The translations under genes were made by a program, and so were the position numbers. The notes beneath the pieces were generated by a model that was not told the origin of the DNA, ran no database searches, and saw only the letters and a program-made list of their open reading frames with translations. A stretch of DNA of 64,000 bases from Candidatus Poribacteria bacterium (GTDB lineage: Bacteria > Poribacteria > WGA-4E > WGA-3G). The stretch is taken from contig CAXXLX010000001.1 of NCBI GenBank assembly GCA_963665235.2, positions 3,488,001 through 3,552,000 of the forward strand, in the 5' to 3' direction. This document shows positions 1,206 to 57,564 of the stretch, piece after piece. Position 1 is the first letter of the stretch, and every line of letters starts with the position of its first letter.

Positions 1206-1410
1206 GTCAATAACCCCCCGCTAAAGCATGGGGGCTTGTGCGAACCGCCTGCCAAGCGGTCACTCCACAAGTTAAACCGTTGACTACAGTAATATATCGG
1301 GTATTCTTAGCGTGGCAGCTAACAAGATGTTTCAGATGCTCCCCAAGTCTGAATCCCCTCTGAATACCTGATCTGGATGGGGAAACATATACCCGAAAGG
1401 AGAAAACAAA
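1206..1410 (+). ncRNA. omegaRNA scaffold (guide read from the left flank, about 1186-1205)
   Basis: ~200-nt structured non-coding region starting GTCAA, with a complementary TTGAC downstream, directly upstream of isrB and conserved in copy 2. Confidence 0.8.
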
Positions 1411-1413
1411 CTT

Positions 1414-2472
1414 ATGTTTGTGCCAGTCAAAACGAAAGAGGGTGAACGATTGAGGTTTCCGATGCATGCTGCACGTGCAAGGAAACTTGTCAAACGCGGT
1501 GAAGCAACGCCTTATTGGAACAACGGTGTCTATTGTGTCCGTCTCAACAAAGAACCGAGTGACCGTGAGAAACAAGACATCGTAGTCGGTGTGGATCCTG
1601 GCTCTAAGAAAGAGGGTTTCACCGTAAAATCTAAGCGTCACACGTATCTGAACGTGCAGGTTTCCGATGCACATAGCAAAGTCGGCAAGAAGGTTGAGAA
1701 AAGACGTGAGTTGAGGCGTAGCCGCAGAGCGCGTAAATGTCCAAATCGGAAGAACCGCAAGAATAAAGGTGCTAACAAAAAGAAGATTCCCGCAGGCACG
1801 CGTGCCCGTTGGGATTGGAAACTGCGGATATTAGATTGGTTGTCTAACCTCTATCCTGTTACACACGTCTGTGTTGAGGATATTAAGGCGCGGACAAAAC
1901 AGTATCAAAAGCGGTGGAATCAGGCCTTTAGTCCTTTGGAAGTCGGAAAGCATTGGTTCTATTCAGAGGTAGAAAAGCGATGGGAACTCCTAACATTACA
2001 AGGGTTTGAAACCAAAGAGATACGCGAGCGTCTTGGTCTCAACAAGTCGTCAAAGAAGTTAGCTGAAACCTTTGAGGCACATTGCGTTGATAGCTGGTGC
2101 TTGGCATATCACACCATTGGCGGTTTAGAGATACCCGACAATACCGATATATTCTGTATCTCACCAATACCGATACGCAGGCGACAACTCCACAGACAAA
2201 ATCCGCAGAAAGGTGGCAATCGGCCGCGATATGGTGGCACCTTATTAGGCGATGGACTTGTTAAAAGCACATTGATAAAGCACGACAAATATGGACTCAC
2301 ACGTCCGAGGTCCCACCGAGGACATCCTATTGCGGGTGTTAATGCGAAAGGCCTATTCTCTGTCTATTCAAAAGATGGACAACGGTTAACAACGGGTGCG
2401 AAACGCACAGATTTTCAAGTGCTAACACGCTTGAACTTTCAATATAGGAGCGGTGTTTCCTCCCCCGCATAA
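1414..2472 (+). CDS. isrB: IsrB RNA-guided nickase (RRXRR/PLMP N-terminus, split RuvC, no HNH)
   Basis: 352 aa; RuvC-I VGVDPG, Arg-rich bridge helix RRELRRSRRARK, RuvC-II VEDI, RuvC-III HCVDS; no HNH or CxxC motifs. Confidence 0.85.
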   Translation: MFVPVKTKEGERLRFPMHAARARKLVKRGEATPYWNNGVYCVRLNKEPSDREKQDIVVGVDPGSKKEGFTVKSKRHTYLNVQVSDAHSKVGKKVEKRRELRRSRRARKCPNRKNRKNKGANKKKIPAGTRARWDWKLRILDWLSNLYPVTHVCVEDIKARTKQYQKRWNQAFSPLEVGKHWFYSEVEKRWELLTLQGFETKEIRERLGLNKSSKKLAETFEAHCVDSWCLAYHTIGGLEIPDNTDIFCISPIPIRRRQLHRQNPQKGGNRPRYGGTLLGDGLVKSTLIKHDKYGLTRPRSHRGHPIAGVNAKGLFSVYSKDGQRLTTGAKRTDFQVLTRLNFQYRSGVSSPA

Positions 2473-2598
2473 ATGCTGGGGGTCTCCACACCGAATATTT
2501 TGATGATAGAGGGAAGGATGGATTTGGCGTGTGTTGTCTGAATCGCGGATTACACAGAGGACACGAAGAACGCGGAAAAAGAGGGGTTTGGGTAAAAT

Positions 2599-39191: not shown

Positions 39192-41702
39192 TTATTCGTC
39201 AGTCAAGTTATACGGGAGCCAGATTTGAAAGTTACACCCTTTCCCATTTTCACCAGCGTCGACCCATATTTTTCCGTGATGTGCCTCAACAAATCCCCTG
39301 GCAATTGAGAGTCCCAATCCGGTGCCCCCTTGTTGCCGAGTTTGCACATTACTGAGCTGCTTAAATTTGTCAAAGACCATCTCACGTTCTTGGATGGGAA
39401 TACCGGGTCCCGTGTCGATCACTTCGGTATAGATGCCCTCCGCTCCGTTCATCGTGTCAGCCGGTGTATCGCCTATCGGCCAACGCCTCCTAGACAGTCG
39501 GACAATGACTTCCCCGTTAGGCGGGGTGAATTTGATAGCATTTCCGAGCAGGTTCGTAAAAACCTGCCCAAGATGTTCTGCATCTCCCGTGAGAGATGGT
39601 AAATCGGTTTGAACGTCCAGTACTAATTTAATCTCTTTTTCATCGGCAGGTGGCCGGAGTTCCTCTAAGCGTTGTTGCGCGATGTCAACAAGATTTACCT
39701 GTTGTAGTTTCATCTGAATGCGTCCGGCTTCAATACGGGAAACGTCAAGCAGGTCATTAATCAGTTCAGCGAGCCGTTGAGACTGCCGGTGTGCACGTGT
39801 CAGGCTTTTTTGCTGTCCATCGTTAAGTGGGCCGGTTTTGCCTTCAAGTACTAACGAGATAAACCCGATGATTGATGTCAACGGTGTGCGCAATTCGTGG
39901 GAAACGAGTGAGACAAAGTCCGATTTCATTCTGTCTATTTCATGTTCGCGCGTTATATCGTCAAAAACGTAGACCGTGCCCCCTATGTGTTCATCGGTTT
40001 CTGATGCGGTATTACCCTTTACCGAGGAAAATTGACTTGCTACAACCCGAAGGACGCGGTTAGCTCCATCTTGGTCAAAATTGAGTTCAACGGTAACGCG
40101 TGCGTCTTTTCCTTGTGCGTCCGCTAAAACGGTCAGGTTTGTAGCACTCACCAACTCCGTAAAACGGGTTGGAAACGGTGACGTTGGGCTGTAGTTAAGC
40201 AGCCGTTTCGCGACAGGGTTGACATAAAGCAGGTTATCGTGAGTGTCAACGACAATCAGTCCTTCGCCAAGGTTGTCAACGATAGCTGTCATCTGTTGTT
40301 CCGCGTCGATGAGTTTTTCTACAGCGGTTTTCAGATTTTGCTGCATGTCGTTGAACTCTTGTGCCAGCATTCCGACTTCGTTTTTGCTGTTGACAGCAAT
40401 CTGCCCTCCGAATTTTTCGTCCACGGCCCTGTTTCGGAGAGATCGCATGTCCACTTTCTGGCTGCTTCCTGCTTCGGAATCAACCTGAATAACCTCTTTC
40501 GCTTCTCTCCCGATACGTTTGGCTGCATGTGTGAGTTGCATAATCGGCTGTGTAATTCGCTGGGCAACTATGTAGGCGAACGGCACAACGATAATACATG
40601 AAATAATGGTAACCCAAATAACGAACTGATTCAGTTTTGCGACCCCGGCGTACACCTGAGCGGTTGGGTACGCGATGAGAGCTATCCAATTGCTGAAGTT
40701 CTGTTCTGCTTTCCAAGGTTTAGGACGTTTGGTGCGTGCCCATCCATACACCCAGGTTGCCTCTCGGATACCGGTTTCGCCATGCGATTCATAACCGTGA
40801 TATTTTCCGGTTCGTCCGCGTTTTGCTTCAACAATTGCCGACATGGCAGCATTGCTCTTGACAATATCGTCGCCGATGCTATATCCACTTTTTGGCGATG
40901 CAGCTATGATTTTCCCTGAACCGCTCATTAAAACGATGCGGATATCAGATACGTCGGGTACCACTAAATCTGAAAGTTCCGGCAGATATACAACTGTCCT
41001 CAGGACACCGATAGCCTTTCGAGGCGATTCTATATCAAAAATCGGAATTGCAACCGGCAATAGGTGCCGCCTCCGTTTGGGATCGTACCGGATATCTTCA
41101 AGAACATCATACCCGAGCCCGCTGTTATATGCGTTTTGCCACCATGCCCTCTGCTTAACATTGTGTGGTCTAGCATTGTACGTATTGTAATCCAGTGCAA
41201 AAATATTTGAGCGAAGCACCTCCCCTTTCGCATTGGCAATTGTCACAACTCCTGCATACCTCTCAATCGCTCTGATGCTCGCTGCGAGGTCTCCCCAAAC
41301 CTGCATAAAAACAACTTTGCTGTTCTCAGCACTATGGGAACGTGCGACAGCGTAGCGGAGTCCGGGTACGTTGAGTTCAGTGCGAATTTGTGCTAATTTT
41401 CTCTCAATTGCCATGTCCGCGAGGTGCACTTTATCCTTTGCGGCGAGTACCCAGCTTTCAGCGATACTGTCTTTCAGGACGTTCTCGCTCAAGGTTTTCA
41501 GTATCATGGAGATGACAAATAATGGCACGAGCGAAACGGCCAGGAAGATAAGCACGTGTTGTGCCCGTAGACCCAATCTCATCCGAAATTTCGGGGTAGA
41601 TTTCTCGTCACGTTCGTTCTGTGCAGGCGCGGTTTGTTTGCGCGGGTCATCAGAATCATTTTGAATCTCTTGCTGAGAGGGGTTAGCTCTGTCAGGATGC
41701 AT
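39192..41702 (-). CDS. sensor histidine kinase (Cache-like, HAMP, PAS, HisKA, HATPase)
   Basis: Two TMs; VSHELRTPL, NLLGNAIKF, DTGPGI, GTGLGL. Confidence 0.95.
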   Translation of the reverse strand: MHPDRANPSQQEIQNDSDDPRKQTAPAQNERDEKSTPKFRMRLGLRAQHVLIFLAVSLVPLFVISMILKTLSENVLKDSIAESWVLAAKDKVHLADMAIERKLAQIRTELNVPGLRYAVARSHSAENSKVVFMQVWGDLAASIRAIERYAGVVTIANAKGEVLRSNIFALDYNTYNARPHNVKQRAWWQNAYNSGLGYDVLEDIRYDPKRRRHLLPVAIPIFDIESPRKAIGVLRTVVYLPELSDLVVPDVSDIRIVLMSGSGKIIAASPKSGYSIGDDIVKSNAAMSAIVEAKRGRTGKYHGYESHGETGIREATWVYGWARTKRPKPWKAEQNFSNWIALIAYPTAQVYAGVAKLNQFVIWVTIISCIIVVPFAYIVAQRITQPIMQLTHAAKRIGREAKEVIQVDSEAGSSQKVDMRSLRNRAVDEKFGGQIAVNSKNEVGMLAQEFNDMQQNLKTAVEKLIDAEQQMTAIVDNLGEGLIVVDTHDNLLYVNPVAKRLLNYSPTSPFPTRFTELVSATNLTVLADAQGKDARVTVELNFDQDGANRVLRVVASQFSSVKGNTASETDEHIGGTVYVFDDITREHEIDRMKSDFVSLVSHELRTPLTSIIGFISLVLEGKTGPLNDGQQKSLTRAHRQSQRLAELINDLLDVSRIEAGRIQMKLQQVNLVDIAQQRLEELRPPADEKEIKLVLDVQTDLPSLTGDAEHLGQVFTNLLGNAIKFTPPNGEVIVRLSRRRWPIGDTPADTMNGAEGIYTEVIDTGPGIPIQEREMVFDKFKQLSNVQTRQQGGTGLGLSIARGFVEAHHGKIWVDAGENGKGCNFQIWLPYNLTDE

Positions 41703-53970: not shown

Positions 53971-54182
53971 TACCATTTCTAATTGGAAATGTCTCTTTAT
54001 TGTAGCATAAACTTCCAGTTTGTGCACTTTCTTGTAGCATAAACTTCCAGTTTGGGCACTTTATTGTAGCATAAACTTCCAGTTTGGGCACTTTATTGTA
54101 GCATAAACTTCCAGTTTGTGTCTTCCGTTCTCCGTTTGATTTCTAACAACCGGTAATGATAGAATAATTAATAAAAATGGTA
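53971..54182. mobile_element. MITE family A with 4 REP units
   Basis: TACCATTT TIRs; TSD TAA. Confidence 0.92.
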
Positions 54183-54270: not shown

Positions 54271-54475
54271 GTCAATAACCCCCCGCTAAAGCATGGGGGC
54301 TTGTGCGAACCGCCTGCCAAGCGGTCACTCCACAAGTTAAACCGTTGACTACAGTAATATATCGGGTATTCTTAGCGTGGCAGCTAACAAGATGTTTCAG
54401 ATGCTCCCCAAGTCTGAATCCCCTCTGAATACCTGATCTGGATGGGGAAACATATACCCGAAAGGAGAAAACAAA
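54271..54475 (+). ncRNA. omegaRNA scaffold (guide about 54251-54270)
   Basis: Matches the scaffold of copy 1. Confidence 0.8.
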
Positions 54476-54478
54476 CTT

Positions 54479-55531
54479 ATGTTTGTGCCAGTCAAAACGA
54501 AAGAGGGTGAACGATTGATGCCGATGCATGCTGCACGTGCAAGGAAACTTGTCAAACGCGGTGAAGCAACGCCTTATTGGAACAACGGTGTCTATTGTGT
54601 CCGTCTCAACAAAGAACCGAGTGACCGTGAGAAACAAGACATCGTAGTCGGTGTGGATCCTGGCTCTAAGAAAGAGGGTTTCACCGTAAAATCTAAGCGT
54701 CACACGTATCTGAACGTGCAAGCCGATGCACATAGCAAAGTCGGCAAGAAGGTTGAGAAAAGACGTGAGTTGAGGCGTAGCCGCAGAGCGCGTAAATGTC
54801 CAAATCGGAAGAACCGCAAGAATAAAGGTGCTAACAAAAAGAAGATTCCCGCAGGCACGCGTGCCCGTTGGGATTGGAAACTGCGGATATTAGATTGGTT
54901 GTCTAACCTCTATCCTGTTACACACGTCTGTGTTGAGGATATTAAGGCGCGGACAAAACAGTATCAAAAGCGGTGGAATCAGGCCTTTAGTCCTTTGGAA
55001 GTGGGAAAGCATTGGTTCTATTCAGAGGTAGAAAAGCGATGGGAACTCCTAACATTACAAGGGTTTGAAACCAAAGAGATACGCGAGCGGCTTGGTCTCA
55101 ACAAGTCGTCAAAGAAGTTAGCTGAAACCTTTGAGGCACATTGCGTTGATAGCTGGTGCTTGGCCTATCACACCATTGGCGGTTTAGAGATACCCGACAA
55201 TACCGATATATTCTGTATCTCACCAATACCGATACGCAGGCGACAACTCCACAGACAAAATCCGCAGAAAGGTGGCAATCGGCCGCGATATGGTGGCACC
55301 TTATTAGGCGATGGACTTGTTAAAAGCACATTGATAAAGCACGACAAATATGGACTCACACGTCCGAGGTCCCACCGAGGACATCCTATTGCGGGTGTTA
55401 ATGCGAAAGGCCTATTCTCTGTCTATTCAAAAGATGGACAACGGTTAACAACGGGTGCGAAACGCACAGATTTTCAAGTGCTAACACGCTTGAACTTTCA
55501 ATATAGGAGCGGTGTTTCCTCCCCCGCATAA
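54479..55531 (+). CDS. isrB: IsrB RNA-guided nickase
   Basis: 350 aa; RLMP (PLMP-like) motif; RuvC D/E/H/D residues intact; no HNH. Confidence 0.88.
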   Translation: MFVPVKTKEGERLMPMHAARARKLVKRGEATPYWNNGVYCVRLNKEPSDREKQDIVVGVDPGSKKEGFTVKSKRHTYLNVQADAHSKVGKKVEKRRELRRSRRARKCPNRKNRKNKGANKKKIPAGTRARWDWKLRILDWLSNLYPVTHVCVEDIKARTKQYQKRWNQAFSPLEVGKHWFYSEVEKRWELLTLQGFETKEIRERLGLNKSSKKLAETFEAHCVDSWCLAYHTIGGLEIPDNTDIFCISPIPIRRRQLHRQNPQKGGNRPRYGGTLLGDGLVKSTLIKHDKYGLTRPRSHRGHPIAGVNAKGLFSVYSKDGQRLTTGAKRTDFQVLTRLNFQYRSGVSSPA

Positions 55532-55561
55532 ATGCTGGGGGTCTCCACACCGAATATTTTG

Positions 55562-57175
55562 ATGAATCAAAGTGTGACCCGGGCAGCTGGGGTTGTAAGT
55601 CTTGCAGTGATGGGGTCACGGGTGTTAGGGCTTGCCCGAGAGGTCGCCATCCTGTATTATTTTCAGACGAAGTTCGGGGCAGCCGCCTACCATCTCGCGT
55701 TTCGCATCCCGAATTTCCTGCGCGACCTGTTCGGTGAGGGTATCTTGAGCAAGGCGTTTATTACGACATTCCTTGCGGCGGAAGCAGAAGAGGGGGAGGC
55801 GGCGGCATGGAATCTTGCAAACCGCATCTTTAATCTGATAGCCCTTATCCTAGTAGGTGTGGTGGGGCTCGGTATCGTTTTCGCACCCGCTATCGTTGAT
55901 GTCCTGGCCCGTGAGGATTTCGACGAGCAATTAAATAACGTTGAACATTACGGATTTGACAGTAAAGTTGAATTGACAATCTATTTGACGCAACTGATGT
56001 TTCCGTACCTATTCCTCGTTTCGCTTGCAGCGATAGCGATGGGATTATTGAACAGTAAAGGTAAATTCGGTATCCCCGCGTGTGCTTCCTCCTTCTTTAA
56101 TCTGTGCTCGCTTGTCGTTGGTATCAGCGGTTATTACGTCTGTCGATGGCTCGGAATTCATCCGACAACAGGAATGGCAGTAGGGGTCATTGTGGGAGGT
56201 ATTGCTCAATTTGGAATTCAGGTGCCCTCCATGTACCGAGTCGGTTTTCGGTATCGTCCACTCTTGAGCCTACGGCATCCGAGGGTACGCCAAATGCTGC
56301 AATTGCTTGGGCCTTCGGTGTTAGGTGTGGCAGCGGTGCAGGTGAATCAACTGACAAATACGTGGTTTATTACCTCAGGCGATGAATGGTTACCGTGGAT
56401 TAACAGTGCCTATCGTATAATGCACCTGCCGTTGGGTATATTTGGCGTGGCGATTTCGACGGTGGCACTGCCGCAACTTGTGAAATTCGCTACTGTGGGT
56501 GATACGGACAACTTTCGCGCCGCTTTCTCTTACGCCCTCCGTTTAATGTTAACTGTAATCCTTCCCGCATCAATTGGATTGATGGTATTGGCAGAACCGA
56601 TTTGTCGGTTGCTTTATGAGCACGGGGCATTCACGGAGGGGGATACAATTGCAGCCGCTGGTGCTCTGTTCGTTTACGCCTTCGGGTTGTGCGGTTTCGC
56701 GGCTCTCAAGCTTGTGACGGATGGATTTTATGCATATAAAGATATCCGTGCGCCAGTTATCGTCAGCATTTGTGCGGTAGTCCTCAACATCGGTTTGAAC
56801 TATCTGTTTATCTATCGCGGGCTCCTGTTCGAACATTGGGCAATTGTGCTTTCAACTGTTTTTACCGTGACGCTGAACTTTTTAGTTTTGCTCCTGCTGC
56901 TCCGACGTAAGGTTGGACGGTTGAATTTGCGACCGCTCCTTCCGATGGCATTCAAGGTTTTGATGGCTTCGATTGTGATGGGATTTATCTGCTGGATAAC
57001 AAATGGAGTCGTTGAAAAGGATTGGCTCGGCACAGAAGGTATTCTACCACGCGCCCTAGGTGTATTCACCCCCATCGGATTCGGTCTGCTGACATTGGCG
57101 GGGATGTATAAGTTCTTGAGAATCACTGAGTTTGACGATATTTTGGAAATGTTTAAGCGGCGATTTCGGAATTGA
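55562..57175 (+). CDS. murJ: lipid II flippase MurJ (MviN); alternative start 55532 inside the element end
   Basis: SRVLGLARE, AFRIPNFLRDLFGEG, LPLGIFGVAISTVALP. Confidence 0.96.
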   Translation: MNQSVTRAAGVVSLAVMGSRVLGLAREVAILYYFQTKFGAAAYHLAFRIPNFLRDLFGEGILSKAFITTFLAAEAEEGEAAAWNLANRIFNLIALILVGVVGLGIVFAPAIVDVLAREDFDEQLNNVEHYGFDSKVELTIYLTQLMFPYLFLVSLAAIAMGLLNSKGKFGIPACASSFFNLCSLVVGISGYYVCRWLGIHPTTGMAVGVIVGGIAQFGIQVPSMYRVGFRYRPLLSLRHPRVRQMLQLLGPSVLGVAAVQVNQLTNTWFITSGDEWLPWINSAYRIMHLPLGIFGVAISTVALPQLVKFATVGDTDNFRAAFSYALRLMLTVILPASIGLMVLAEPICRLLYEHGAFTEGDTIAAAGALFVYAFGLCGFAALKLVTDGFYAYKDIRAPVIVSICAVVLNIGLNYLFIYRGLLFEHWAIVLSTVFTVTLNFLVLLLLLRRKVGRLNLRPLLPMAFKVLMASIVMGFICWITNGVVEKDWLGTEGILPRALGVFTPIGFGLLTLAGMYKFLRITEFDDILEMFKRRFRN

Positions 57176-57195: not shown

Positions 57196-57564
57196 CTAAA
57201 CTTTGGACAATTTTAGGGAGACACAATGTTCTTGTCAAACGGATAGGTGGAAGGGTGGAAGAATGGAAGGGTGGAAGCGGGGAAGCGGGTTTTGACGCGC
57301 GGCAGAGATAGGCTTAGCCTCACAATCCTCTTGCTAACTGCTAATGGTTTCCAACATTCTATAAACATTCCGCCCCGCTGGGGCTAGTTTGTGTTTTGTT
57401 TGTGTTTTCTATAAACATTCCGCCCCGCTGGGGAAACCGCACTTTGAAAAACCCATCGGCGGAAACCATTTTTCTCTTCTTTGTCCTTGTGTGAGGCACT
57501 TAGAGAAAAATCAGAGAGGCTTTGAAAGCGGGTATCCGGCTCACGGATATTGTCCAAACTATAG
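57196..57564. mobile_element. composite MITE (TIR CTAWASTTTGGACAAT)
   Basis: Imperfect 16-bp TIR; direct repeat AGACAAGTA on both flanks; related partial ends at ~23895-23978 and 45001. Confidence 0.75.

Follow-up and report, generated by a model that had tools for sequence, protein, structure and literature searches.

The small dispersed repeats SDR1-8 of Nostoc and its relatives, reportedly described by Elhai et al. in 2008, are 21–27 bases long and able to fold into a conserved hairpin. Complex changes of several bases in one step are said to be explained as quasi-palindrome or template-switch mutations, both in Ripley's model and in the treatment by Loytynoja and Goldman of 2017. DNA uptake sequences are hyper-abundant short words that are kept by a repair or drive process. 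The HIP1 word of cyanobacteria (GCGATCGC) is over-represented 15- to 300-fold (PMC5861425). IsrB, the OMEGA nickase of IS200/605 elements, has been described by Hirano et al. 2022 (PMC9581776).

Here, the window, a stretch of 64,000 nucleotides from a genome of Candidatus Poribacteria (assembly GCA_963665235.2, contig CAXXLX010000001.1, positions 3,488,001 to 3,552,000), was found to contain a 1.3-kb IsrB element (IS200/605 type, OMEGA) in two copies, one of which has GGTTT in place of a dinucleotide at two sites. We lean towards the reading that these edits are two instances of a recurrent, lineage-specific micro-replacement in which the dinucleotide 5′ of CC becomes GGTTT. That a real, recurrent and sequence-specific process underlies them we hold with high confidence; that this process is a dedicated templated writer we propose tentatively.

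The two IsrB elements and their differences

The features of the window used below are the following:

1206..2504, plus strand: IsrB element copy 1 (edited), delimited by its identity with copy 2 in the global alignment
1206..1409, plus strand: putative HEARO/omega-RNA scaffold of copy 1 (Rfam RF02033, full model length)
1414..2472, plus strand: isrB reading frame of copy 1, 352 aa, open (translation)
1454..1458, plus strand: edit 1, TG to GGTTT, RLMP to RLRFP in the PLMP motif strand (alignment, translation, paralogues)
1659..1663, plus strand: edit 2, AG to GGTTT, QADAH to QVSDAH (alignment, translation, paralogues, X4 contig)
54271..55564, plus strand: IsrB element copy 2 (unedited; global alignment)
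54479..55531, plus strand: isrB reading frame of copy 2, 350 aa (translation)
54519..54520, plus strand: unedited TG before CCGATGCA, counterpart of edit 1 (alignment)
54721..54722, plus strand: unedited AG before CCGATGCA, counterpart of edit 2 (alignment)
57432-57438 and 57461-57467, minus strand: two further GGTTTCC in a small intergenic repeat (genome sites C1_3545432_m and C1_3545461_m)

The protein encoded by copy 1 matches the Pfam family RRXRR (PF14239) over residues 3–166 (E 3e-26), and this match identifies the N-terminal arrangement of PLMP strand, RuvC-I and arginine-rich bridge helix. RRXRR is the sole Pfam match in the 352 residues, and because there is no HNH domain the protein is an IsrB rather than an IscB. 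Directly upstream of the gene lies a HEARO-like region, which RF02033 matches at 1206–1409 with 30.8 bits (E 4.4e-4), a score that does not reach the gathering score of 83. The end of the element, TTTTGATGA, would be compatible with target-adjacent motifs of the TGA type, which have been reported for IsrB (PMC9581776).

Several other small sequences are found in and around these elements (coordinates outside the window are given as contig and position). Both copies have a 34-base insertion in the C-terminal part of isrB (window 2304–2337 and 55364–55397), which is also present in the paralogues at C1:121374, 1403173, 1442575 and 2521004. At C2:382693, which keeps the empty form, a single base stands in its place, and the 28-base core of the insertion occurs with 100% identity at the unrelated positions C1:546754, 2373740, 2521641 and 3342101; the insertion resembles a very small mobile repeat, lengthening the protein in frame by about 11 residues. 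In the isrB paralogue at C1:3598982-3599030, a 47-base hairpin takes the place of the CGAA loop that tops a small stem between the omega-RNA region and the isrB start codon. Just before copy 2, at window 53990–54120, lies a tandem array of a GTAG-tagged REP-like unit (GTAGCATAAACTTCCAGTTTGTGC) that is also found at C1:1853470, C4:10438 and C2:852876, and one IS630-type family inserts into the hairpin loop of this unit.

The original prediction had described two complex changes in copy 1, from TG and from AG to GGTTT before the same CCGATGCA, and global alignment confirms both. AGGTTTCCGATGCA is present at 1453–1466 and at 1658–1671 of copy 1, while copy 2 reads A-TG-CCGATGCA from 54518 and A-AG-CCGATGCA from 54720. 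The two copies differ at five places only, the two replacements and three substitutions (positions 1944, 2031 and 2106). The 13-mer GGTTTCCGATGCA occurs twice in the window against an expectation of 0.14, a count reached in 0 of 100 shuffles. Each replacement has a net gain of three bases and, as had been foreseen, both keep the frame and one breaks the RLMP motif, so that the two genes are open over 352 aa (copy 1) and 350 aa (copy 2).

Copy 1 is the derived form, since the extra bases are missing from the 21 other paralogues and from the homologues in other organisms. Among the 22 paralogues of the genome with an intact N-terminus, copy 1 alone has the extra bases, and the other 21 keep both LMP and QADAH. 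A tblastn search of relatives and metagenomes returned 110 matches in 110 loci, in which the homologues retain LMP and Q[AST][DE]A. No sequence but copy 1 shows an extra residue at the second site, and the same holds at the first site among the 107 matches whose variants were listed. At each of the three substitutions between the copies the paralogues are split and give no polarity. The metagenome and genome scans contained no IsrB with more than 78% amino-acid identity, and the DNA of relatives is at most 79% identical.

The consequences for the protein are probably severe. The PLMP motif strand is no longer intact in copy 1, whereas copy 2 and the other 20 paralogues have LMP, and edit 2 falls where RuvC-I ends and the arginine-rich helix starts. 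DtIsrB no longer nicks once its PLMP domain has been deleted (PMC9581776), and the copy 1 protein is therefore probably disabled. Judged from its sequence, it has probably been crippled by both hits, the one in the PLMP strand and the one at the junction of RuvC-I and bridge helix, and isrB copy 1 is then probably a casualty of edits that have no function.

Recurrence of GGTTTCC in the genome and the lineage

The source genome, which we take to be that of a sponge symbiont, was assembled from a metagenome (5.3 Mb, 4 contigs). Comparison of the genome with itself yielded 1001 repeat pairs of at least 93% identity, and the same replacement is seen in unrelated repeats. GGTTTCC or its complement is present in the long form of 16 of the 128 isolated 3-base indel clusters between such copies. 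All 1675 GGTTTCC sites were then taken together with 70 bases on each side. For 199 of them there is a partner that is exactly three bases shorter, and 139 of the 546 sites with a spanning repeat partner are clean 5-for-2 replacements, with matching flanks and, in the partner, two bases where the site has GGTTT in front of CC. The repeat at 57432..57467 of the window behaves likewise, its other copies being three bases shorter at both GGTTTCC sites.

The 139 clean sites fall into 35 sequence contexts, in which the replaced pair is AG (14 contexts), TG (11), AA (4), TT (2) or one of GC, TA, AT and CG (1 each). The base before the replaced pair is A or T in 26 of the 35, and CC is followed by C, A or G in 34. 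The recurring unit is thus GGTTTCC, made from NN+CC (mostly AGCC or TGCC), and not the 8-mer CCGATGCA to which the original prediction had attached the edits: CCGATG follows the patch in the two isrB contexts only, and GGTTTCCGATG has a genome count of just 14, with none of the other sites sharing any further flank with those in isrB. Nor does the CATCGG-TTT-CCGATG hairpin survive to which the process had been suggested to be related, as there are 0 matches in the genome for either palindrome, and its supposed near copy at 39991–40005 reads CATCGGTTTCTGATG, without the motif. What does hold is that independent random mutation is implausible and that a sequence-directed micro-insertion is the best reading.

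The same pipeline gave only 0–15 sites for each of 17 control 7-mers, including 1 for the reversed word CCTTTGG and 0 for GGATACC, GGTTTCA and GGTTTCG. The maximum of 15 belongs to AGTTTCC and comes almost entirely from places where other copies have GGTTTCC (or AG); these sites could have had a two-step origin instead of a single patch. The replacement occurs in both orientations and with exact boundaries, and its hosts are many unrelated repeats, including TnpB and IsrB genes. Events are visible in repeated DNA only and all rates refer to repeats, among which the rate of clean replacement does not differ between sites inside OMEGA elements (13 of 43) and outside them (122 of 465); transposons are therefore where the change shows and not where it is aimed.

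The direction of the change rests on the 17 of 35 context groups that are singletons, with the long form in one copy only, as both forms are abundant in the large families and direction is unreadable there. Short forms at one and the same site vary among the copies (e.g., CG in 5, TG in 3 and CA in 1), and varied dinucleotides overwritten by one word fit this pattern, which the reverse direction does not. The hits are also clustered. In addition to the two in isrB copy 1, there are two in a 412-aa TnpB-like frame (C1:75255 and 75388), and a 422-aa TnpB frame has two inside and one just outside (C1:666393, 666548 and 667511). These sets of two or three hits are unique to single TnpB copies, and all the frames remain open, as is expected of a gain of three bases. 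In one intergenic element with several hits, every unit of a short tandem array has been converted. An intergenic element of about 170 bases at C1:2433140-2433240, with relatives at C1:1419200, 3109320 and 4028650, carries GGTTTCC three times in one arm and GGAAACC three times in the opposite one, each with a spacing of 10 bases; other copies have TGCC, AGCC or GGCC at those positions, at 7-base spacing.

The highest-order Markov excess of GGTTTCC is only 1.13 (rank 487 of 7-mers), and the process is therefore not flooding the genome. In non-coding DNA the word has a density of 0.68 per kb, against 0.075–0.37 for 12 control words, while its density in coding DNA (0.25 per kb) is like that of the controls, and an excess in non-coding DNA alone fits a mutational input that is purged from genes by selection. 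The same restriction to non-coding DNA can be turned in favour of another explanation, in which GGTTTCC is a functional word of intergenic repeats, such as a protein-binding site or an RNA loop, that biased gene conversion or selection spreads to other sequences, with the hundreds of copies already present as its source; some intergenic elements with three to six GGTTTCC at 10-base spacing in both arms are of the kind it would produce. We consider it improbable, as the patch has exact borders and no co-converted flanks in the high-identity events, no donor has flanks that match the isrB sites, and the coding hits in isrB and TnpB break conserved residues and so were not selected there.

The genome is also strongly depleted of GGCC, which occurs 14,586 times on both strands, compared to 27,758–55,328 times for AGCC, CGCC and TGCC (TGCC alone 55,328) and 40,080 times for CCGG. 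This suggests a GGCC-specific restriction system in the history of the lineage.

A polishing artefact, named beforehand as the outcome that would dispose of the edits, is unlikely for site 2, the site that the read-level check covers. A 276-base contig from run X4 extends over 1543–1818 with 0 gaps and a single other letter (1716, G to A), and GGTTT is therefore present at site 2. Runs X6 and X8 gave a 283-base contig with site 2 unedited, such contigs showing the presence of a form and not its absence. At 1454–1458, the four runs compared show neither a differing letter nor a contig that bridges site 1. At 1716, both window copies and run X1 read G, while X4, X6 and X8 read A, so none of the latter three merely reproduces the sequence of the assembly. 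On the 1716-A background, site 2 is found both edited and unedited, which implies that copies have recombined, that the event has recurred or that strains differ.

The generality of the change speaks more strongly against an artefact. In 185 loci from other genomes and metagenomes, the motif is present at 5 of 38 isolated 3-base indel sites, the motif-bearing loci come from SPAdes as well as MEGAHIT assemblies, and the same change is found in Illumina-built Poribacteria assemblies. For instance, a JGI contig (L034) shows the long form at a position where TG or the like stands in L017, L037 and L041, and one site is common to L184 and L188, from different assemblies (SPAdes and MEGAHIT), with L189 being short. 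Within the genome under study, the long form at C1:1018484 is matched by the short form in the approximately 99% identical contig C3, which makes the change polymorphic at this one locus. Both small contigs, C3 and C4, are approximately 99% identical variants of C1:1002322-1032654 and C1:3774884-3794300, and are probably the haplotype of a second strain and not separate replicons; several small insertions of 17–25 bases are among their differences from C1. An error of assembly or polishing in this genome might still be argued from its origin as a metagenome assembly in 4 contigs, whose repeats are hard to polish, from a read-level check limited to site 2 and from the G of the window at 1716 where X4, X6 and X8 have A. 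It is hardly credible, however, in view of the X4 contig, the haplotig-like polymorphism and the recurrence in other assemblies from other assemblers, and because copy 2 is unaffected despite identical flanks.

The range of the phenomenon was followed with the ratio of GGTTTCC to the reversed control word in each genome. This ratio is 3.3 in the present genome, about 1.3–4.6 in its family (99 genomes), 1.2–2.0 in two sister families, 0.8–1.1 in family f4 and 0.3–0.8 in other classes of the phylum.

A proposed fixed-template writer and competing mechanisms

A fixed product with exact borders, made from varied inputs at target sites with a short consensus, in bursts and in one lineage, argues for a trans-acting writer with a fixed template, and chance, conversion and end-joining fit this combination poorly. 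Two features suggest that not only the TTT but all seven bases of the 7-mer are specified: the product is symmetrical (GG, three T, CC), and the first base is converted to G. The target would be about (A/T)(A/T)GCC, the dinucleotide removed usually being A or T followed by G. A trans-acting enzyme or ribonucleoprotein may open the DNA at or next to the G-C step of WGCC, after which a short patch would be filled in from the fixed template to give GGTTTCC, with a net gain of three bases; the patch would then act like a "mobile" sequence of the smallest size imaginable. The sites struck in isrB copy 1 would be the only two with a common GCCGATGCA, reached either both at once or with the second copied from the first. 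This would fit a burst in which local sequence beyond GCC matters, or a second edit that was copied from the first.

How much of the pattern could be due to copying over short distances is best judged from the surroundings of the events. The 1294-bp element has 30 NGCC sites on both strands, and the edited pair, one of 435 possible pairs, is the only one with a common 8-mer after the dinucleotide. Tandem CCAAC-TG-CCAAC-TG units have all been converted together in some copies, and a direct GGTTTC lies within 60 bases of 5 of the 17 singletons, including site 2, against a random expectation of 5.3%; local copying therefore contributes to some events. These observations speak for a single primary event followed by template switching or short-patch conversion through the 8-base repeat CCGATGCA, with the other isrB edit or the GGTTTC 40 bases upstream of site 2 as donor. 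We nevertheless think such an account of the two edits rather unlikely. It still requires a first event and so adds to the main reading without replacing it, the upstream homology is one base only, and local donors fail as a general source, as an inverted GAAACC is near 1 of the 17 singletons and neither word is near the remaining 11.

Excision footprints of transposons, too, look like one fixed short sequence that recurs at many sites and has a weak target consensus. A cut-and-paste element that sat beside CC might on its exit remove two bases and leave five, and the genome has 16 IS630-type DDE_3 matches in three families. The ends of these families, however, start with TATAGTAG, CTAGTG and ATGAAGATT, unlike GG...TTT, and among 73 insertion polymorphisms there is no case of GG at one end combined with TTT before CC at the opposite end. 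Furthermore, a footprint normally adds to the target duplication and replaces no bases, and Ku (PF02735) was found in 0 of 41 genomes, in a search whose control was positive in Bacillus subtilis, a result that also speaks against a Ku/LigD end-joining scar. An excision footprint is thus distinctly improbable.

Other candidates for the agent or for its targeting were rejected as well. Targeting of hairpin tips was discarded, as only 4 of the 35 target dinucleotides lie in a predicted hairpin loop, and so was a bias of replication strand, with 845 forward and 830 reverse sites and no switch along contig C1. IsrB is not needed, because genome G001 has no RRXRR match and yet the highest GGTTTCC ratio, and a Y1 transposase is rejected as driver since Y1_Tnp has no match in the enriched genomes G010 (86% complete), G008 and G015. 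A template supplied by reverse transcriptase was set aside too, the genome having a single such gene, which is of group II intron type and shows no link to the motif. This gene (C2:259913-260929; locus L197 1303–2739, minus strand) matches the family model in two stretches, residues 19–183 and about 325–415, as though the protein had gained about 140 residues in its middle.

The templated writer thus continues to be our tentative proposal for the process behind the micro-replacement. If it exists, which is possible but open to considerable doubt, this family of Poribacteria would have a novel DNA-writing activity with a target of about four bases, (A/T)GCC, a fixed pentanucleotide as its product and bursts on single segments. 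Such an activity might have no counterpart among the described transposases, recombinases, retroelements and repair pathways, and might be regarded as a site-directed templated mutator or, equivalently, as the smallest self-spreading sequence known.

Comparison with known systems

An enzyme or ribonucleoprotein that writes a 5-base patch at a 4-base target would, if true, represent a new class of natural DNA editor and a new source of in-frame insertions in bacterial genes; here, one residue has been added and a neighbour changed at two conserved positions of an RNA-guided nickase, and likewise in TnpB. The step from NN+CC to GGTTTCC is a countable mutational signature that can be traced in many complete Poribacteria genomes, so that the responsible gene can be sought by a manageable comparison of genomes. 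The 3-base differences that it leaves between otherwise identical repeats can also be mistaken for assembly errors. No description of a GGTTT 5-for-2 pattern was found in the main texts of the literature on Poribacteria repeats or on small dispersed repeats.

The likeness to cyanobacterial small dispersed repeats drawn in the original prediction proved a useful lead as far as presence and absence within repeats are concerned, and breaks down at the size of the unit, which is just 5 bases. As with the SDRs, a very short sequence without coding capacity occurs within some copies of larger repeats and is missing, with precise borders, from other copies, here at 139 sites in 35 contexts and between the alleles at C1:1018484 and in C3. 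Unlike an SDR, the GGTTT patch writes five bases and removes two, has neither the size nor the hairpin of those repeats and, being only five bases long, cannot carry its own recognition structure; its target of about WGCC is moreover part of the final word. Insertions closer to the SDRs do exist in this genome, with 26–47 bases that replace 0–4 target bases. A 30-base hairpin insertion, for example, is present in most copies of one IS630-type element (C1:737699, 1687281, 2925741, 3591729 and 9266; C2:855110; C4:11441) and absent from the copy at C2:104073.

Template-switch mutations resemble the present changes in that they make complex replacements of several bases in a single step and convert neighbouring repeats together. 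They differ in copying nearby sequence, with products that vary, whereas the GGTTT product is always the same and most singletons (11 of 17) have no such template close by. HIP1 and the DNA uptake sequences are, like GGTTTCC, lineage-specific short words in excess of expectation. HIP1, however, arises by substitutions and GGTTTCC by a replacement with a net gain of three bases, and the excess of GGTTTCC is far lower, at 3.3-fold relative to the reversed control and 1.13 in the Markov comparison, and limited to non-coding DNA. The struck gene itself conforms to the described IsrB nickases of IS200/605 elements in its RRXRR/PLMP-RuvC N-terminus, its length of about 350 aa and, putatively, the HEARO-like RNA upstream, and in this comparison IsrB is the victim of the replacement and not its agent.
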